A DNA stretch of 58,969 nucleotides, counting the filler, from Dugesia japonica (lineage: Eukaryota), in NCBI GenBank assembly GCA_001938525.1. It is 4 parts of 4 records of this genome, joined end to end, with 100 filler letters (N's around TTAATTAATTAA, not from the genome) between each part and the next. Parts side by side here need not be neighbours in the genome. Positions count along the whole stretch, not along the records: positions 36,073 to 45,210 come from MQRL01622013.1; 3 more parts are not named here. One strand, given 5' to 3'. Positions 31,275 to 57,726 of the stretch are shown in pieces. Under the pieces are notes generated by a model. It worked only from the letters and a program-made list of their open reading frames with translations, had not been told where the DNA came from and did no database searches. How positions within the stretch are numbered: the first letter of the stretch is position 1; the number at the start of each line of letters is the position of its first letter. Both the position numbers and the translations under genes were made by a program.

Positions 31275-34200
31275 TTATATTGAACTACAATTTAATTTTT
31301 GTTTTAATTTATTTAATCTTAAATACCACTGATTACAAATTTCATATTTAAACTTATTTCCCTGAGGCCATGTTCTTATTCCATTGTCTTCAATTAGTCT
31401 TTTGTCATCATAGCACGTTAAAGCTATTTCTTTTGTTCAACAAACTCAATTTCATGTTTATGTGATTTTAAACTATTATTAGTTCCATAAATTATTTCAT
31501 TTGACTCTAAAGCTTTATCGAATTCTTTCATACCTATTTCATTAAATTTAGAAACAACTTTATATATTTTATCTAACTTGTTGGTATCAAATTTGTAAGC
31601 ATAACTTTTTGATTTAATAAAATCACATTTAGTAATTTCATTATTTGGTTTCTCATCTTTCCATTGAAATAAATTATTACCTAATAAACTTTCTACTTGA
31701 GTTAAATTATTTCTTCCAATAATTTCTACAAAATATAAATCTGTATCACTATAATGAATTTTATACTTGTTTGGTATTGCATTATCTAATTGATTATAAA
31801 TAAAGTCATAAATTACTTCTTTAACGTATTCTAAAATAGTGAAACCAATATATAGGAATTTATTATATTTTAATTTTGATTGTCTCAAATGAATAGCTGC
31901 TGTTTCTGCTCGCTTGGTTTCTGTACATGTAAATATTTTACTAGATCTAAAATTTTTCTTTATCTGTTCCAACTATTTCTACATTACATATTTTTCCTAT
32001 GCCTTCTAAAGTCTTTCCATAAAATCATTATTTAATAATTTAAAGAAACAATCTCCAAATACATCGTTATTTCTTTTTGATTCATTTCTTTGATTAATAT
32101 TAAATTCAGTGTAATCTTTTAACCAAGCTTTTGTTGGAAAGATATATTTCGAATGCATTTTTTTATTTTCATTCCTAATTTTAAATATAAATCTAATGTA
32201 GAACCCAAAACAATATAATTTTGTTTATCAAATTGATTCAATGTTAATTTAATATTTTTCTTGAATAATTTCTTGCTAAATGATAATTGATATGGTCTTA
32301 ACATTTCTTCTTTAATATTTATTCTATCAGGATATAGAGGAAAATACTTTGTCTTTTCATGTATTTCTGGAGGATATTCTATATAAACTTCATAAATGTA
32401 ATTAATTTCTGAGGTTGATTTTTTATATTCCAAGTTGTTAGATTCAATTATTTCACCAGCTGATAAAGATTTTGTCATGCAATAGACATAAAGACTGTTT
32501 TCATCAATATATTTAATAAATGTATCTTCAAAATAATCTTGTGAAAATATTTGTTTTCCTTGTAATAATAAATTTAATAAATCATTCNNNNNNNNNNNNN
32601 NNNNNNNNNNNNNNNNNNNNNNNNNNNNNNNNNNNNNNNNNNNNNNNNNNNNNNNNNNNNNNNNNNNNNAGAAACCACCTCTAACACCTCTTTCTATTTT
32701 TAGAAATATGTTGTAAGTATCTTCTTGTGCATATTTTAGTTTCTGATTTGTGAATTTCATTCCTGCAGCCCAAGTTAATTCTGGAGCTGAGTAACAATAG
32801 CTTGGATGTATTTGATAATTATTTAAACAAATCAATCTAAAGTTTTCAAAAAAATCTGCTAAAATAATTACATATAATTTCATATAAAACATCATATAAT
32901 CAGATAAATTATTAAAACTTTGGAAATCTTGTAAAAATTGATTGTATTCTTGTTCAGTTATTTTTTGTTGTTTTAGTTTATTGTTCAAATCTTCTTTTGC
33001 CGGAACTCTACCTAATTTTAATAATTCAATTACTTGATTAATGTTTTCTCGTTTTACATATTCACATGAAAATTATATTTTCTTTGGAATGAGATTAAAT
33101 GATATTAAATGATTATATTTTCTTGATTGATTTAATAATTTACCCATTGTGCCAATCAATGTAAAAGGACACATTCTTGAAGAATCTAAAACTCTGATGT
33201 GTCTAAATTCAAAGGAAATGTACACTTCATCTGAATGTGGAATTATTCTTTTTACTTCAGTTAGATATTTTATTAATAATTCTTTGAAAAATAAATGATT
33301 GTCATAACCAGATTCATTGTGAAAATAAAATGGTATAAATAATTCTTTTATAGTTTTATCTTATAAGTTACAATTTGAATGAGGATAACTTCTGAATTCC
33401 CCATTAAAGTGGTCATGATCAATAACTAGATTTTCAGTTATCTTTTTATTACAATATCTACATTTGGATGATCAGTTCTAGTATAATATTCAATTAATTT
33501 ATTTTCTTTTATATCTTTTAATTTATTATTAATCTCTTCTAAAAATTGAAAGAACTGTTGATGTATATTCTCTCCATAAAATTCTTTATATTCATTTTCA
33601 ATTAAATGTTGATATTTACTTTTGATGTAAATTCTTAGAGATAAAGGTTTTTGTTTTTTGGTAATTATACTAGTCCAACTTTCGAAATCACCATAAATTA
33701 CAAATGGTAATTCAAATGGTAAATATTTATCATTTTCAAAATATACTTTAGATGAATTGTGGTTAAAACATTAATTCCACAATAATTTTTAGATCTTTTT
33801 TGATAGTAATTCTTTTATTACTTGAATATGAATTAAATACTCTTTCTTCATCTTCTTTAGTATAATTACAATTTACACTCAATCGTAACCCAAACTTTTT
33901 TGAATTATCAAAATAAATATCAACAATTTTACTAATTTCATTTTTAAACCAAGATATTAATTTAAAATTTAATTTTTTACATTTCTAGTTAATTCAATTT
34001 TACTTTCTTTAAAATATTCAATTTTATAATACTTTATATTTTTTAAATGTTTAAATAATTTTCGAGTTTCATTCCTTTCAAAATCAGTTGCAGGTAATTC
34101 ATCAAATAAATTTTTAGTTTCTTCTCTCAATTTTAAAACACGATCTTTGTGTATTCCACATTTAAAATGAGATCTTGCATGGTTTTCTCTAGTGAATGTT

Positions 34201-38554: not shown

Positions 38555-40379
38555 CAGGGCTATTTATAATTATATCCACCTTATGCATAATTATATGAAC
38601 TTTTAAATTGAAATTAAAATATTATATTTAAAACAAAAAATGTATAAAAAAATAAAATCTAATATGTATTTTAAAGTAAAAAACGTAGAAATATTTTTTA
38701 ATAATACTGTTGTAAATAAAATTAATGCATATAGATATCAATAATACATTTAATCTCTGATGATATTGAACAAAAAATAGGAGTGTTCATTTTTAAAGAA
38801 AAATTCGAAATAATTCTATGTATGAAACAACAGAATGTTAAAATTGAAGATATTTCGGTGGCAACAAGTATTGAAAAATAAGCCATTTATAAAAAGTTAT
38901 TTGCATTTGACAAGCATCTAGAAAAGGGTGGAAATACAAATAATTTTTTTAAAAAATTCGGGCGAAAATTAAACAGCAACAATCATATACAGGAGGAATT
39001 GTACGAAACAGTATCATTGGATAATGCTCTGACCCAAGAGGGAATGAAAGATAAAACTACTGGAAAATGGTATTCAAAAATCACAATCTGCATTATCTCG
39101 TATTCTCAAAAGCATCAATATCACAAGATAAAAATTGAAAAAAATGAAATTACGTGAAAAGAGAAAAATAAATTACCTGAAAAGAGATACATAAGTCAAA
39201 ATTATTCTATCATCGTGAGAAATACAGGATAATAAACTATTTTTTATTGATGAGACAAAATTCAATCTACATACTTCTACTAATTATGGATACAGTTCTG
39301 CAAATAACGAGGCTTATATAAGAGTCCCCAAAACCAGAGGAGTCAATGAATCACTTATGGCATGTCTAGGGTTTAAGGGAATAATGGCACATAAAATTAT
39401 TGATGGTGCATACAATGGATATAAATATTAGGATTTTATAAATAATCTTACTTATAGGAATCTATTAGAAATTGGGGATACTTTGGTTTGTGATAATGTT
39501 CCGTTTCATCATTATATAAGAACAAGAAATCCACTTGAGCAAGCCAATGTTAATCTGGTTTTTTTACCACCATATTCACCTCAACTAAATTCAATTGAAA
39601 ACGTTTTTGGTTTGACAAAAATGTGATACATATCAATGATGCCGATATAGGGCAAACACGTAACTACATGAAATAAAGAATATTGTCGGTAATGAATGCT
39701 CTAAATATTGATGAAAATATATCTTTTCTGGAGTTTTATAGGTCAATGAGAATGTATTGTGACAAGGCATAATTTGGAATTTTTTTAGTCTAATAATCGT
39801 TTAAATTATGAATTTTGTTCTATATAAAATATATTTATTTATTCATTTCAATAAGATAAATTTAACATATTTTTCGAAGTAGTATTTTTGTATAATTATA
39901 TATAATGGGGAAGTATATATTTTATAAAATAATTTTAAATCGAAAAAAGATCTATTGTATTGAATATCTCAAGAAGCCAACATGTTCCTGAAGAAGACCA
40001 TTGTCGAAAATTTGAANNNNNNNNNNNNNNNNNNNNNNNNNNNNNNNNNNNNNNNNNNNNNNNNNNTAATGAAATCTCAAATGCGATCAATGGTTAAGTC
40101 CAACAATTATTCTCACAATAATTGTAATTATAAAATTCGAAAAATATAATTCATTTTAATTTAAAAGTGGATATAATTATAAATAAAGTAGTTATAATTA
40201 TGAATAGAGTGAATATAATTATAAATAGAGTGGATATAATTATAAATATATTATATATAATTATGAATGAAGTAGATATAATTATGAATAGAGTAGATTT
40301 ATTTATGAATAGAGTGAATTTAGTTATGAATAGAGTTTTTATCATTATGAATAAAGTAGATATAATTACGAATAGCCCT
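38555..40379 (+). mobile_element. Decayed Tc1/IS630-like transposon with a subterminal 21-bp tandem array
   Basis: LFFIDETKFNLHTSTNYGYS, LVCDNVPFHH and VFLPPYSPQLNSIENVF. TIRs TA|CAGGGCTATTTATAATTATATCCAC and GTAGATATAATTACGAATAGCCCT|TA. 21-bp repeats at 40160-40370. Confidence 0.9.
39981..40016 (+). ncRNA. Minimal hammerhead ribozyme motif in a Penelope-like fragment
   Basis: GTTC-CTGAAGA-A-GAC CATT GTC-GAAA-ATTT-GAA shows both core boxes, a 3-bp stem II, a palindromic stem III and a partial stem I that runs into an N gap. Confidence 0.55.
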
Positions 40380-41097
40380 TATTTTAGTATAATTTTATTT
40401 AGTAGATATGCATGTATCCGCACATTTATTCTTTAAATTATTACTTATATTAAGTGTATCATCGTATATATTAGAATAAAAATTCCAAGGTAACATTTTT
40501 CAAACCACCTTAACAAATAAGTTTTATATATATTCTTTTTTTAAATTATTGATTTCAATTTACTCTCCTTTATATTAATAAGAAACATTATATTGTAGTA
40601 AATATTTATTTGTTATGTGGCATTGTTTCTTTTAAAAATTTTGATTTATTATCATTATAGTGTTTCTTTTGTACACTTTGTATTCAGACTGGTTTTTTAA
40701 AATCGCTTTTATTCCTAAGTTTTTAAATATGTTAAATATTTTTAGTAAAGAAGGTTTATGAATATCATTATACAGAAAAAAAATTTATAGAAATTTATAG
40801 TTTACTAATTTCTTACAAATCTTCTAAAAAGTTCACTTAAAAAAATTATCAAAATAAATAAATACATTATATATATAAGTAGTGGGAAATATACTCTTTA
40901 ACCTCAAGGGGTATACTTACCGTACCACATTTTTCTTATAAAAATAAAATCTCACAATAAAATGTCACAAAAAATGTCGCATATAAAATGTCGCATGTAA
41001 TATGTCACAATAAAACCATAAAGGAAAGTATGCGATAAGAAAATGTCGCATGTAAGATTCATAAAGAAAAAAAAATGCTAAATTTTTTCTATAGAAA

Positions 41098-41730
41098 ATG
41101 ACTACTGAGAAAAAGCCATTACAACAATTAAATTTATTAAGTGTTACAAATTTAATTTCTAGTGTTATTGATATAAAAGATGGAAATATANNNNNNATAG
41201 TAGAATATACAAAATGTGAACTTACAAAAGATGCCGCTCAAAATAATTTAAATTATCTTAATCAATTTTATAAATCAATGGATGGATATAATATACCAGA
41301 TGAAATTAAAAATGGTATTAAAAAAATGATGACTCTTGTTATTAGTTTATTAACAAGCGATCAATGTAAAAGTTTAATGGTTGAATTATTAGATGATAAA
41401 CTTTTACATTGTGAAAAAATTATTGAAGCATATCAACAAAAGTTACAATCAGAAAGAGATGAACATAATAGTGTTTTAAAGAAACATAATGAAATATTAA
41501 AACCAGAATATGTTGATTTTATTGATTTAATTTATAAAGTCGCGGTAAAAGAAGGAAAAAGAAGATATGTAAAATCTTCTGATGTTACTAAATTATATAA
41601 TAGATTAGTAAGTGATCCCAAAAAATTATATAGCCTTTCTGTAAATGAATATACTAATATATCTACAAAAGGATGTAAATCAATTGCATCTGCACAAGCT
41701 AAATTTAAGGGTCAAAAAATAGTTAATTAA
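41098..41730 (+). CDS. Polinton hypothetical protein (210 aa, helical)
   Basis: Long open ORF with AAAATG context, first gene after the terminus. No domain recognised. Confidence 0.7.
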   Translation: MTTEKKPLQQLNLLSVTNLISSVIDIKDGNIXXIVEYTKCELTKDAAQNNLNYLNQFYKSMDGYNIPDEIKNGIKKMMTLVISLLTSDQCKSLMVELLDDKLLHCEKIIEAYQQKLQSERDEHNSVLKKHNEILKPEYVDFIDLIYKVAVKEGKRRYVKSSDVTKLYNRLVSDPKKLYSLSVNEYTNISTKGCKSIASAQAKFKGQKIVN

Positions 41731-42106
41731 AATGGATACAGTTTTTTATAAAATGTTAAATGATTATAATTTTAAAAATAATTCTATAATAAATTTTNNN
41801 NNNNNNNNNNNNNNNNNNNNNNNNNNNNNNNNNNNNNNNNNNNNNNNTAAAAGAAGGAAAAAGAAGATATGTAAAATCTTCTGATGTTACTAAATTATAT
41901 AATAGATTAGTAAGTGATCCCAAAAAATTATATAGCCTTTCTGTAAATGAATATACTAATATATCTACAAAAGGATGTAAATCAATTGCATCTGCACAAG
42001 CTAAATTTAANNNNNNNNNNNNNNNNNNNNNNNNNNNNNNNNNNNNNNNNNNNNNNNNNNNNNNNNNNNNNNNNNNNNNNNNNNNNNNNNNNNNNNNNNN
42101 NNNNNN

Positions 42107-42378
42107 TAAATAATCTCAATGAAAAAACTGTAAAGAAATATTTAAAACAATGGAATATTGAATATAACACTAGAATATGGAATCCATCTAGAAATAATCA
42201 AAGAAATTCAAATGGTAGTTTTATATCTGCCATCGATCGTTTTGAAAATAAAAAACCTATTGTAGGGCAAAATAAAAAACCTATTGTAGTGCAAAATAAA
42301 AAAGATAATATTAAAATTAATTATGATGAATTAGGAAAACAGATGAAAAAAATCATACAGTATGGTAAGATAACGTAA
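42107..42378 (+). CDS. Polinton hypothetical protein, C-terminal part (5' end in gap)
   Basis: Open frame NNLNEKTVKKYLKQWNIEY...NKKPIV (x2), ending upstream of the capsid gene. Confidence 0.5.
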
Positions 42379-42475
42379 CACAATAGTAACATAATAAAAA
42401 AACACAGTGGCAAAAAAAACACAGCGAAGCCAACAAAGTGCCAATAGACTAAAAATTTATCTTTATAAAAGAGAC

Positions 42476-43740
42476 ATGTTGGATTTAGATTATAATATTG
42501 AATTTCAACATACAGCAATTAAAAATGACNNNNNNNNNNNNNNNNNNNNNNNNNNNNNNNNNNNNNNNNNNNNNNNNNNNNNNNNNNNNNNNNNNNNNNN
42601 NNNNNNNNNNNNNNNNNNNNNNNNNNNNNNNNNNNNNNNNNNNNNNNNNNNNNNNNNNNNNNNNNNNNNNNNNNNNNNNNNNNNNNNNNNNNNNNNNNNN
42701 NNNNNNNNNNNNNNNNNNNNNNNNNNNNNNNNNNNNNNNNNNNNNNNNNNNNNNNNNNNNNNNNNNNNNNNNNNNNNNNNNNNNNTTCAACAATGTTAAA
42801 TTTTATATCTACAACTGAAACATTTAAAAAAGAATATGGACAATTATCAGGTTGGATTCTAGTTATTGATAATAGAAAAAAACTTTATAAATCAAATAAA
42901 TTTGAAGGTTACTTTCAATTAAGAAATCTATTTGGATTCATGCAAAATTATAATCGTCTTTTGTACAATACAATAATAGAATTTACATGTAACCGTCAAA
43001 TGGAAGATAAACTAATATTTTATGGAGAAGAAAAAACAACTGCATCATTAAAAATATTAACACTAGAACTTCACATTCCAGAAGTTAGATTATTACCTAG
43101 AAAAGAATTAATTCTCCTAGAAAGAATATCTACAAATAAACCAATTAAAGTTTCATATTTAAATAGATTATCATCTAAATCGAATTTAGACACTGGTGGT
43201 TATTATTCAATCAAAATTAGCAGTCTAGCATATCAACCCAGATATATTTTAATTTGTATAAAAGATTCAGAAAACTCGTATCAAAAGAATAATAATTTAT
43301 TCATTCAAAAAACTTCAAAAACCACAAAAGCAGTGGCACCAGCAACTGTAGAAACAATAACAAATTATTATTTAAAAGGTGTACAATTACAATTAAATAA
43401 TACTTATTATCCAATTAACGAATTAAAATTTGACATGTCAAATAATGAAATGGCTTACCCATATATGCAATATATAAAATGTTGCCTTGAATTTTTAACA
43501 GAACCACAATTATCATCAATTGATTTCACTAATTTATATCCATTGTTCTGTTTCGATACCAGTGCACATGATGACAAAATGAATATTAATAATGTTGATG
43601 TCACACTTCATATATCAAAAGATCCAGATTTCAAAGGAACTCTTTACTGTTGTATACTTGAAGAAAAACATGTTGAAATGAAACTTGCTAATAATAAAAT
43701 TGTTTTAATTCAAAATGTTAGAGGACTTGATATAAAATAG
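42476..43740 (+). CDS. Polinton/adintovirus major capsid protein (double jelly-roll), interrupted by an N gap
   Basis: LRNLFGFMQNY, LELHIPEV, QPRYILI, VQLQLNNTYYP, LYPLFCFDTS, VDVTLHI and LYCCIL match the Polinton MCP pattern. Likely start MLDLDYNIEF at 42476, before the gap. Confidence 0.85.
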
Positions 43741-43749
43741 ATTTAAGAA

Positions 43750-45087
43750 ATGAATAAAGGAAGCAAAACCATAAAGAAAGACAAAACCATAAAGGAAGAC
43801 AAATTCATTTGTGATTATTTTGGTAAAATATTATTAAAGAAAAATAAATCCAGACATTTAGATTTGTGTATTAATATTAAAAGTGGAGGCGACTTACAAA
43901 ATTCAACAGTAATATCTAAATTATTAAAACCTATAACTACAGAAAAATATCCAGGTGAACGTCATTTATTCCACCATAATTACACTGGCCCTGGAACTAG
44001 ATTAGATATCCGATTAGATTCCGACAATAACCCAAAACCTGGTGAAGAACCAATTAATAGAGTTGATGAATCTGCATTAAAACATGACATTGCGTATAAT
44101 TCAACTGATATCCGAGATCGTCATATAGCAGATGTTAATTTAATACATGATCTTAATAATATTGAAAATCCAACCACCAGTGAAAAATTTCAGAGAGCTC
44201 TTGTAAAATTAGCTATGAAAGGTAAAATCATTCTTGGCCAGAGTGTAACGAAGAAAAATGTAATTAAAGATGAATCTGATGCGGAGCGAAGCGACGATAA
44301 TAAAGATATTTTATCAAAAGAACTTCACAAAGAATATAGAAAAACTAAACATTTTAGAAAAGTCATTGTTTATGAAAAAGATGAAATTTGGTCAGCTGAT
44401 TTAATATTTCAAGGCACAGAACGAAAAAATAAACATGTAATATTAACAGTTATCGATCTCTATACAAGATTTGCATTTATCGAACTTTCTAAAAATAAAA
44501 CTGGAAAATCAACAACAAAAGCATTTGAAAGAATTCTTGAAAAAAGTAATAGAACTCCATTGAAATTATGGGTTGATGAAGGTAAAGAATTTTATAATAA
44601 AGAATTTAAAATTTTCTGTAAAAATAATAATATTGAAATCTACTCAACTCAAAATCAAGGAAAAGCAGTTGTAATTGAAAGATTCAACAGAAAATTTAAA
44701 AACAAGCTTTTTAAACATTTTACTGCCGTTGGAAATCAGCGAATCGAAGATGAGCTTTTACAAGAAATAGTAAATGATTACAATAATACAATACATTCAA
44801 GTATTAATATTACACCTCAACAAGCAACAGATAATCCTGAAAATATTAAACTTAATACAGAAAAATCTTACACGGACAAATTAAAATTTGATATTGGCGA
44901 TCGCGTAAGAATAACTAAAATTGGAAAAACATTTCCTAAAGGTTATACNNNNNNNNNNNNNAAAAGAATTTATATTATTACTAAAATCCACAGGACAAAA
45001 CCTTTTACATTTGAAATTTCAAATCTTAATGGTAACAAAATACTTGGTAGATTCTATACAAATGAACTTCAAAAAACTGCATTATAA
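43750..45087 (+). CDS. Fusion protein: parvovirus VP1u-like phospholipase A2 (PLA2X) plus Polinton DDE integrase
   Basis: NYTGPGT (Ca loop), PINRVDESALKHDIAY (HD dyad) and RHIAD, followed by ELHK, WSADL, LTVIDLYTRF, LWVDEGKEFYN, VIERFNR, YNNTIHSSI and GRFYTNELQK. No stop, and the only gap is downstream of the junction. Confidence 0.93.
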   Translation: MNKGSKTIKKDKTIKEDKFICDYFGKILLKKNKSRHLDLCINIKSGGDLQNSTVISKLLKPITTEKYPGERHLFHHNYTGPGTRLDIRLDSDNNPKPGEEPINRVDESALKHDIAYNSTDIRDRHIADVNLIHDLNNIENPTTSEKFQRALVKLAMKGKIILGQSVTKKNVIKDESDAERSDDNKDILSKELHKEYRKTKHFRKVIVYEKDEIWSADLIFQGTERKNKHVILTVIDLYTRFAFIELSKNKTGKSTTKAFERILEKSNRTPLKLWVDEGKEFYNKEFKIFCKNNNIEIYSTQNQGKAVVIERFNRKFKNKLFKHFTAVGNQRIEDELLQEIVNDYNNTIHSSINITPQQATDNPENIKLNTEKSYTDKLKFDIGDRVRITKIGKTFPKGYXXXXXKRIYIITKIHRTKPFTFEISNLNGNKILGRFYTNELQKTAL

Positions 45088-45310
45088 GTTGTTTTAGTTC
45101 GCAGAAAGCAGTGTTAAGTTCGCAGAAAGCAGTGTCCAGTGTTTATGATTAAAATAAAAAATATAAAATGGTGCACTATTTTTGTGAATTAGAAACTATA
45201 ATTGAAACAANNNNNNNNNNNNNNNNNNNNNNNNNNNNNNNNNNNNNNNNNNNNTTAATTAATTAANNNNNNNNNNNNNNNNNNNNNNNNNNNNNNNNNN
45301 NNNNNNNNNN

Positions 45311-45742
45311 TAAAATTATTGATAATTATATTTAAAATTATTGATGATTTAAAATTATTGATAATTATATTTAAAATTATTGATAATTTAAAATTATTGA
45401 TAATTATATTTAAAATTATTGATAATTTAAAATTATTGATAATTATATTTAACATTAATGATGATTTTATTTACAATTATTGATAATTATATTTAAAATT
45501 ATTGATAATTTAAAATTATTGATAATTATTTTTAAAATTATTGATAATTATATTTAAAATTATTGATAATTATTTTTAAAATTATTGGTAATTATATTTT
45601 TAATTATTGATTATTTTATCTAAAATTATTGATAATTTTTTTTAATATTATTGGTAATTATTTTTTAAATTATTGGTAATTATATTTAAAATTATTGATA
45701 ATATATTTAAAATTATTGATAATTATATTTAAAATTATTGAT
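45311..45742. repeat. AT-rich minisatellite (TAAAATTATTGATAATTATATT variants)
   Basis: Direct tandem array visible in the sequence. Confidence 0.95.
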
Positions 45743-46069
45743 ACTTTTATTTATATATTACTCATATTACGGGATATCCCACTATCAATTTTACCGCCGG
45801 GATCCCGTTAAAGAAACACTAGTACTTAATTGTTGAATCAGTTTGCTATATATTAGTAGTTTAAAGGTAAATAATTGTTTTATTTTAATCATTATTTTAA
45901 ATTTTAATTTTTATCGAAGTGATAAGTCAATCTATCAGAGATTTTTCTATCNNNNNNTTTTTCTATCACTAAACTTTTCAAGGATGTCATATTATTTGAT
46001 AAAAATAAATTATTTGATAAATTATTTGCAATAAAAAATATGAATATTCCAAATAATCGAGGAAATATG

Positions 46070-56953: not shown

Positions 56954-57088
56954 TGTTGGGGTTCCACCTGAGTTGATGTTAGAAAAATAGCGGCTGGGGA
57001 AATGACAGCCCTCAGGGGACTCCTTCAATAATGTAATCTAAAGTCCCTATTTAGATTTTCGATATGGAGGGGTTGACCTCCAACGTTA
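56954..57088 (-). mobile_element. LTR 3'-end fragment
   Basis: TGTTGGGGTTCCACCTGAGTTGAT...CCCTCAGGG is the reverse complement of 26010-26077. Confidence 0.7.
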
Positions 57089-57089
57089 A

Positions 57090-57235
57090 ACCATTATTCA
57101 TTAATTTCCACGAATCTTTCTAAAAGTCAGTTGTAGCCACAGTTCTTTTTCTTGTATTATAATCTATATATTCTTTTAACCACGGTTTTTCTCTAAATGA
57201 AACTATCTCATGTACTTTTGTTACAACCATTCTAA
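57090..57235 (-). pseudogene. Short pPolB fragment (motif B region)
   Basis: MVVTKVHEIVSFREKPWLKEYIDYNTRKRTVATTDF*KDSWKLMNNG. Confidence 0.85.
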
Positions 57236-57726
57236 AATGAGTATTTGGGTTTGCTGCCATTTTTAAATAACCAAAATAAAATTTACGCAAATTTCCAAAA
57301 CATAGAAATTAGGACAAATTAGTTTTAGATTTGATAAAATCATATTCCAGACAAATTTTAAAAACTGCATTTGCTTCACAAAAAATCGTCACATACAAAG
57401 TGACTGCCAGTTTGAATAGCATACTTTTGAAGGCACGACATTGTTGAGACAATAAATTTATCATAAATTAAAGAACAACAATAAGCGTAATTAAACTAGA
57501 ATGCTTTTACTTGTTGCAAAAATCTAACCTCCCTTTTAATTCACAAAGCCCTGAAACAGGGGCGGGTGTAAAAAAATCACCTCAGAAAAGAGCGTGGTAC
57601 AAACGAGGGTCACCTTGTGTTCTGCAGTTTCCAAACTTCCGTCTTAAAACGTTTCTTTTCTTCTATTCAGTTATTTTTAAATTTGATAAATGTTGATATG
57701 ACAATTGAATAATTTCTAGTTCATTC

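Follow-up and report, generated by a model that had tools for sequence, protein, structure and literature searches.

A Phospholipase A2–Integrase Fusion in a Maverick-Polinton Element of Dugesia japonica and a Predicted −1 Frameshift at the Same Junction of Related Loci

The open reading frame (ORF) located at positions 43750..45087 (+) of the window, i.e., of the whole 58,969-nucleotide stretch of Dugesia japonica DNA that was analyzed, is a real fusion of a phospholipase A2 (PLA2) and an integrase, with both active-site motifs intact, and it lies beside a capsid gene. Judging from sequence comparisons, this fusion is likely the in-frame form of a product that related loci would obtain by a −1 frameshift, and it would probably put the integrase in the virion by means of the PLA2. 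The frameshift predicted in the relatives is a more surprising and testable result than the single ORF of the window, which belongs to a wide family.

Results

Domains and Predicted Structure of the Fusion ORF

The ORF was characterized by translation, Pfam searches, alignment and AlphaFold2 modeling. It encodes 445 amino acids. The initial annotation had described one uninterrupted frame with a PLA2 and a D-D-E integrase: the single frame with both domains was borne out, and the description as uninterrupted holds for the lack of stop codons but not for a run of 13 N at 44949..44961. These N are 3′ of the catalytic core and distant from the junction, and the frames flanking them agree with those of the homologues.

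Starting from the N-terminus, the ORF displays a Gly-Gly pair (aa 46–47; 43885..43890, +) within a GG-D-L-Q motif that precedes the PLA2 and is a candidate protease site. There follow the core of the parvovirus VP1u-type PLA2 (aa 72–142; 43963..44175, +), with YTGPG at 78–82 and HDIAY at 112–116; the LGQS motif at the PLA2 end together with a basic/acidic linker (44233..44307, +), which is the place where the frame changes in relatives; and the rve integrase (aa 187–445; 44308..45084, +), with an ELH motif, the D217-D276-E310 triad and a beta-rich C-terminal domain. The profile check proposed for the residue ranges of both domains gave Pfam matches above the curated cut-offs to Phospholip_A2_4 (PF08398; aa 72–142, E=3.4e-8) and rve (aa 209–299, E=1.7e-10), while no Pfam match to the chromodomain (PF00385) was obtained in the ORF, as had been anticipated. 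In an alignment of 46 sequences (the window and 45 chosen hits), G80, H112, Y116, D217, D276 and E310 were invariant. A PLA2 profile built from relatives matched the VP1 of AAV/parvovirus in the PDB (E=1.1e-5), and the nearest solved structure to the integrase by sequence was that of HTLV-2 integrase (E=3.8e-5). The AlphaFold2 model of residues 1–400 showed two confident domains, with block pLDDT mostly >85 over approximately 60–160 and 205–365, and a low-confidence linker at residues 165–181; its best fold match among viral proteins was the integrase of a MELD virus (E=7.9e-12). The linker (44233..44307) contains neither a canonical slippery heptamer nor a Met codon, so the window ORF would yield the fusion every time.

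Near the start of the ORF, the closest homologues have a zinc-finger-like motif, C-x2-C...H, with which the segment 43810..43860 (aa 21–37) aligns, save for the second Cys, which is missing from it; the −1 relatives described below have DUF5679 (PF18930) in place of that motif. A short doubled repeat (45098..45136) is found directly 3′ of the ORF.

Genomic Context of the Fusion ORF

The window is AT-rich draft sequence with 24 runs of N. Upstream of the fusion ORF there is a double-jelly-roll (DJR) major capsid gene (42476..43740, +; PF21738, E=8.2e-16) that contains an assembly gap at 42530..42785. Its TAG stop codon occupies 43738..43740 and the ATG of the fusion ORF begins 9 bp downstream, at 43750, as the initial annotation had it; the adjoining DJR gene likewise upholds the Polinton context then proposed. 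Six capsid homologues were found at 44–52% identity, the full-length ones being of 431–448 aa, and the window capsid gave weak tblastn matches to the capsids of four related loci (L001, L002, L004 and L019). The model of this capsid was poor (pLDDT 53), yet it still matched DJR capsids, with a fold search that did not discriminate among groups. Alpha adintoviruses, by the accessible parts of PMC8502044 and PMC11071296, have a hexon recognizable by BLASTp against the reference and an OTU-bearing PolB; for the window, the comparison gave six unnamed capsid homologues only, with no PolB linked to the capsid.

The sequence starting with AGTAGT at 40878..40895 (+) is the likely left terminus of the element, as inferred from the sequence. 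It is present as a single copy in the window and is of the (AGT)2 type, which is the terminal motif of Mavericks according to the accessible part of PMC8097293; no matching right terminus was found in the window, the opposite strand included, with up to 3 mismatches. Short subterminal direct repeats of the AAAATGTC type (families D9, D12 and D15) occupy 40945..41058 (+), and a 210-aa ORF with no Pfam match above cut-off occupies 41098..41730 (+). The element fragment 40878..45210 contains gaps and is cut by the scaffold join at 45211; in this gapped fragment, which stops at the join, no ATPase, protease or penton genes were found, nor any protein-primed PolB. The element behaves as a group 2 Maverick-Polinton but lacks two adintovirus features, the pX tail and the chromodomain.

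Other features were observed in the window. An exact 163-bp duplication (41546..41708 = 41848..42010), flanked by N gaps, is likely an assembly artefact. AT-rich tandem arrays with periods of 21 and 22 nt flank the element (40123..40415 and 45302..45790). A degraded Polinton-type pPolB occurs in several frames at 31356..33471 (−) and 57078..57242 (−), in scaffold pieces separate from the element. Elsewhere there are a RING-finger ORF (PF13920; 47296..47559, +), a mariner-type HTH (PF17906; 19271..19675, −) and a segment that by eye resembles a broken Tc1-type transposase (38882..39626, +).

Sequencing Reads across the Junction

A pair of DNA runs from this organism, each belonging to a different study, gave 13,741 and 14,175 contigs matched on 42790..44948, with read contigs in all 30 bins of this interval, mostly at 90–95% likeness; the element is thus a member of a large, diverse repeat family. 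The summed read depth falls steeply at the linker (44230..44301) and at the N-terminus, which is to be expected if both parts vary between copies. One contig of run X1, which may be the source sample, equals 44203..44306 with 0 differences, and none among the contigs listed spans the linker with 31 letters inside the integrase. In low-depth sibling contigs, the end of the PLA2 is linked to the start of the integrase by shorter linkers; in a low-depth contig of X5, the only sibling with known intervening letters, the linker is shorter and the integrase is out of frame. The raw-read check suggested for the junction gave the exact X1 contig on one side, and the depth drop and the out-of-frame sibling on the other. 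RNA data amounted to 11 partial reads with less than 95% likeness in one run and 0 in another, too weak to speak of expression.

These data bear on the explanation by which the window fusion would come from misassembly, or from a deletion private to a single dead copy. The scaffold is a draft with many gaps and the duplicated 163-bp piece is nearby, and both the fall of depth at the linker and the lack of a listed contig bridging 31 letters into the integrase would fit with it. Nevertheless, the homologues closest to the window, at 54% identity and 95% coverage, run collinear with it through the junction, the X1 contig is exact, with the mentioned reservation about its source, and the sibling contigs make the same join. 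This explanation is already largely refuted, and we consider its chances minimal.

Recurrence of the Fusion among Homologues

A homologue search that admitted only lengths of 220–700 aa, and ranked two-domain proteins first, returned 264 proteins. Both Pfam families were annotated in 81 of the best 120, which makes misassembly or private deletion very unlikely, and both domains were matched by our own profiles in 100 of the best 120 of the 264; given the length window and the ranking, these counts demonstrate recurrence and not frequency. Among clusters at 50% identity, both domains were present in 33 of the best 150 representatives, with the PLA2 first in 31 and the order reversed in 2. One of the fusion clusters carries an annotation from the sea spider Nymphon striatum and another one has 114 members. 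The ESM Atlas contains a cluster of 184 members, named PLA2/integrase by automatic means, with rve in 93% and PLA2 in 78% of them; its score was middling to good, and it is a lead only. The fusion is not unique to the window ORF, and its architecture is already visible in automatic annotation. The recurrence in relatives that the initial annotation proposed to look for was thus encountered; by the same token, the rarity that it implied did not survive, the fusion being widespread, which that annotation had itself named as a finding against its reading.

Of the 81 fusions with both annotations among the best 120 homologues, no more than 4 had the chromodomain PF00385. In the alignment of 46 sequences most rows end with an E-L-x-K-T motif, and this shared end indicates that the absence of the chromodomain is common to the relatives. 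In a FastTree analysis of 88 integrase segments (38 of the 76 long fused hits, 49 loci and the window), the window grouped with 34 fused sequences, a grouping favored by sampling with a fused query.

Variants of the architecture were also seen. In the two reverse-order proteins (P0362 and P0444) the integrase is followed by a chromodomain-like end, a G-K-G motif and an intact PLA2, which suggests, from their sequences, an independent joining of the same two enzymes. The locus L021:514-2499 is a fused form in which an insertion of about 250 aa separates the PLA2 and the integrase, P0318 being similar, and in L029:9884-10050 a DUF5679-like start is joined directly to the linker and integrase, with no PLA2 domain.

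Junction Phase in Related Loci

The nucleotide sequences of 93 distinct contigs were examined, leaving out three duplicates and ten PLA2-only contigs (L096–L105); viral contigs scanned with the single protein gave no match. The long related contigs (L001, L002, L004 and L019) are Polintons that have a capsid gene and an A32 ATPase, and L002 has PolB by Pfam. There is an adenain-like protease in L019, a −1 locus (E=3.2e-4 to adenain), and probably also in the fused locus L002, which has a similar ORF. As to the contigs left out, nine of them (L096–L104) are viral contigs of about 3.3 kb with a related PLA2, possibly small ssDNA viruses.

In 30 loci the PLA2 immediately preceded the integrase, both being on one strand: 10 were fused, 17 had the integrase in the −1 frame, 2 in the +1 frame (L045 and L106), and 1 had an in-frame stop (L055). 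Eight of the fused loci are L002, L011, L014, L020, L021, L023, L028 and L065, while the other two, L001 and L025, are fused through the linker and have a later break. L015 was counted by its PLA2 tail only, and L029, with its PLA2 domain deleted, was set apart. The excess of −1 over +1 loci (17 vs. 2) departs from even odds with p=0.0007, with the reservation that the loci are not independent: many −1 loci are close kin, so that the counts overstate independence. The −1 loci fall in at least 3 parts of the FastTree, interleaved with fused loci, and in 12 of them the integrase is in one unbroken ORF. The +1 locus L106 has both ORFs otherwise open; it is a Polinton with PLA2, integrase and capsid whose record bears the title of a bacterial MAG, probably through misbinning.

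L001, L025 and, probably, L048 have the appearance of fused genes in which indels arose by chance, from which it follows that some of the phase changes are mutational. Most related integrases, with 54 loci tested, stand by themselves and have an ATG of their own, so a link to PLA2 is not required.

Slippery Heptamers, Start Codons and Hairpins

The known signal for −1 frameshifting, according to the accessible part of PMC7075266, consists of an N-NNW-WWH heptamer, a 5–8-nt spacer and a downstream structure. The heptamer A-AAA-AAC, which is read as Lys-Asn in the 0 frame, was present in 10 of the 17 −1 loci, in frame with the PLA2 and some 12 codons or fewer after the G-x-G motif that ends it. 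Any canonical heptamer was present in 13 of the 17, the three extra ones being T-TTA-AAA or A-AAA-AAA, and none was found in the other 4 (L004, L030, L048 and L073). As a control, the integrase ORFs of the −1 loci contained in 4,238 codons no in-phase A-AAA-AAC and 19 canonical heptamers of any kind; Lys-Asn occurs there 25 times, never as in-phase A-AAA-AAC. Of the 12 loci with Lys-Asn in the linker, 10 have it in this codon form, with L030 and L048 being different. Among 115 stand-alone PLA2 proteins, sought with a query profile that contained −1 loci and so favored their kin, 83 also had Lys-Asn no more than 20 aa downstream of G-x-G (counting distinct tails, 67 of 99), versus 9 of 75 proteins from the fused search. 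Clusters of stand-alone PLA2 with the same Lys-Asn tail have up to 41 member sequences.

Concerning start codons, a Met before the ELH motif was found in only 2 of the 16 testable −1 loci (L004 and L019) versus 50 of the 54 unlinked integrases, after exclusion of 7 more loci that were cut or unmatched, and in a control limited to short leaders (≤36 aa) it was found in 14 of 17 unlinked integrases. The integrase ORF of most −1 loci has its first Met only downstream of the first catalytic Asp. If the frameshift reading is true, annotations would have to be corrected, many Polinton integrases being truncated by gene callers.

Behind 4 of the 13 heptamers (L015, L017, L049 and L050) there is a hairpin, 4–7 nt away, more stable than every integrase-body window of the same gene, and in 3 of the 13 a stop codon comes directly after the heptamer. 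No unusual hairpin was found behind the other 9, scoring simple hairpins with pseudoknots aside. The heptamer and, in some loci, the spacer and downstream structure match the signal quoted above and are the signature of programmed −1 ribosomal frameshifting, which very probably takes place at the PLA2/integrase junction of the relatives. The linkers of the window, L002, L011, L014, L028 and L065 contained no canonical heptamer, and a reverse use of the signal, with frameshifting in fused genes to stop after the PLA2, was dropped for this reason.

Two other explanations of the −1 loci were weighed. According to the first one, the fused ORF would be the sole functional state, and the −1 loci would be dead copies or assembly errors in which a base slipped in the lysine A-run. 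It is worth noting that A-runs of ≥6 are rare in integrase bodies (20 in 9,633 nt), which makes the linker the likeliest site of slips, that six loci (L030, L045, L047, L048, L073 and L076) are plainly degraded, and that L001 and L025 do show such indels. However, slips of this kind leave out of account the −1 bias of 17 vs. 2, the fixed C after the A-run and the fixed phase in 10 loci, the correctly spaced hairpins in 4 loci, the unbroken integrase ORF in 12 −1 loci and the Lys-Asn-tailed stand-alone PLA2 clusters, so we regard this explanation as improbable. According to the second one, the −1 relatives would make the integrase separately, by splicing, by a non-ATG start or by reinitiation after the PLA2 stop, and only the in-frame group would fuse it. 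The Met before ELH of L004 and L019 agrees with a separate integrase, and related DNA viruses splice their transcripts. Nevertheless, 14 of 16 loci are without that Met, the overlaps are purine-rich with no obvious acceptor tract by eye, and the phase of the heptamers and the hairpins would be left unexplained; it seems to us very improbable.

Discussion

Protease Motifs and a Proposed Packaging Mechanism

The initial annotation had compared the Gly motifs at both sides of the PLA2 to adenain-type sites. According to the accessible part of PMC6048507, the strict adenain consensus is (M/I/L/N/Q)XGG-X or (M/I/L/N/Q)XGX-G (the final hyphen marks the cut), and mavirus virions contain an rve integrase together with a protease that cuts GG-X and GX-G. 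The window motifs KSGG-D and ILGQ-S depart from the strict consensus, with Lys at P4 in the former and Ser in place of Gly in the latter, so the comparison does not hold for the strict form. The looser mavirus-type GG-X does occur upstream of the window PLA2, while GX-G does not occur in the window. Among 79 proteins with PLA2 motifs, GG before D[LIVA][QH] is found upstream of the PLA2 in 48, and after the PLA2 there is G-x-G in 54 and G-x-S, the type of the window, in 4. Fused, frameshifted and ordinary PLA2X proteins alike retain G-x-G where the PLA2 ends, and long PLA2X-like proteins have it ahead of their own tail.

The polyprotein and packaging idea of the initial annotation is indirectly supported by the apparent −1 fusion of the relatives, the kept G-x-G, the adenain-like protease of L019 and the virion integrase of mavirus. 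In the relatives, the PLA2 ORF ends with G-x-G and a short basic tail, and the integrase overlaps it in the −1 frame without an ATG. Most ribosomes would produce the PLA2 alone, and a minority would produce PLA2–integrase by slippage at A-AAA-AAC, as occurs with Gag versus Gag-Pol; the window ORF would be a fixed in-frame form of the product that the relatives are predicted to obtain by frameshifting. From the parallel with parvoviruses, a role at entry is attributed to Polinton PLA2 (accessible parts of PMC8502044, section 3.2, and PMC4642659). The PLA2 may be a virion protein that breaches a membrane during entry and brings the integrase with it; most simply, it would be packaged as a precursor, and its C-terminal cargo, here the integrase, would be cut off at G-x-G. 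The adenain-like protease of the element would cut at GG and G-x-G, freeing both enzymes at maturation, and the incoming DNA would thereby arrive with its own integrase. Generalizing, the chances seem about even that a broad Maverick-Polinton branch evolved independently a Gag/Gag-Pol strategy, with PLA2 as carrier, A-AAA-AAC as metering device and release by protease, and that several lineages fixed it in-frame.

Some points count against this proposal. The window LGQS departs from G-x-G, and a Lys at P4 fits adenain poorly. Moreover, the fixed 1:1 ratio in fused elements loses the dose control of the frameshift and leaves the source of surplus PLA2 unexplained. A different reading takes both the fusion and the −1 frameshift as real, with expression economy (a single promoter and start codon, a low integrase dose) in place of packaging as their purpose, the PLA2 doing no more than lending its start. 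Neighboring genes become fused easily, the majority of the related integrases stand alone, and mavirus packages a stand-alone integrase (accessible part of PMC6048507). Against economy as the reason, the catalytic residues of the PLA2 are invariant in fused proteins, G-x-G is retained at the boundary, and there are reverse-order fusions, in which a shared start cannot be the explanation for the integrase. On balance, we find expression economy rather unlikely, and packaging by means of the PLA2 is the reading that we retain.

A conserved physical coupling of the integrase to a lipase of entry, by in-frame fusion or by frameshift, would make little sense for a purely intracellular transposon, and it touches on the question of how the Maverick-Polinton integrase meets the incoming DNA. 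If the Gag-Pol-like reading were true, it would provide sequence evidence for integration from incoming virions; if the frameshift reading were true, it would be a DNA-virus case of Gag-Pol-like recoding. Maverick-Polinton virions have not been observed, according to the accessible part of a 2026 preprint (10.64898/2026.06.19.733378).

Comparison with Known Systems

In the accessible parts of the literature, PLA2 and integrase are treated as separate genes (PMC8502044, PMC3671162, PMC11161782, PMC11071296, 10.64898/2026.06.19.733378, PMC6048507, PMC11131425, PMC5803895, PMC4642659, PMC7075266, PMC10120064 and PMC8097293). We found no literature description of a PLA2–integrase fusion or of a PLA2-to-integrase frameshift, although subscription journals, Repbase notes, figures and supplements may show either.

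The closest system is the PLA2X of Alpha adintoviruses or group 2 Maverick-Polintons, which, as far as the accessible parts of PMC8502044 and 10.64898/2026.06.19.733378 show, is a parvovirus-type PLA2 beside capsid genes, as in the window. A stand-alone long form (P0226) has 34% identity to the window PLA2 and the same G-x-G end. The difference is that PLA2X continues into a pX-like tail which in the window is replaced by the integrase; by the description of PLA2X in the accessible parts of PMC8502044 and PMC11071296, the long tails seen in P0226, P0256, P0283, P0288 and P0292 are absent from the window. Also, the adintovirus integrase has its own gene and carries a chromodomain, according to the same accessible parts, whereas that of the window is fused and has none. 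In this virus group, −1 frameshifts have been predicted for penton and hexon–adenain (accessible part of PMC11071296); the recoding is of the same kind, equally at the level of prediction, and PLA2 and integrase are not mentioned as partners in that part of the text.

Two other systems resemble the window in part. In mavirus, the rve integrase MV02 and the processed, lipase-like hydrolase MV13 are both in the particle, with sites GG-X and GX-G (accessible part of PMC6048507); the mavirus proteins are encoded by separate genes, and MV13 has an alpha/beta fold and is not a PLA2. In parvoviruses, the unique region of VP1 has a PLA2 with YxGPG and HDxxY tethered to the capsid protein, whereas the window PLA2 is tethered to the integrase.

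Finally, the retroviral Gag/Gag-Pol system is like the relatives in having a structural ORF followed by an integrase-bearing ORF in the −1 frame, with an N-NNW-WWH heptamer, and the likeness extends, in some relatives, to the 5–8-nt spacer and downstream structure, and likely to the release by a protease. It differs in that here we have a dsDNA virus with a double-jelly-roll capsid, in which the upstream partner is a small lipase and not the main shell protein, the protease is a cysteine protease encoded apart, and the copy in the window reaches its integrase without any shift.
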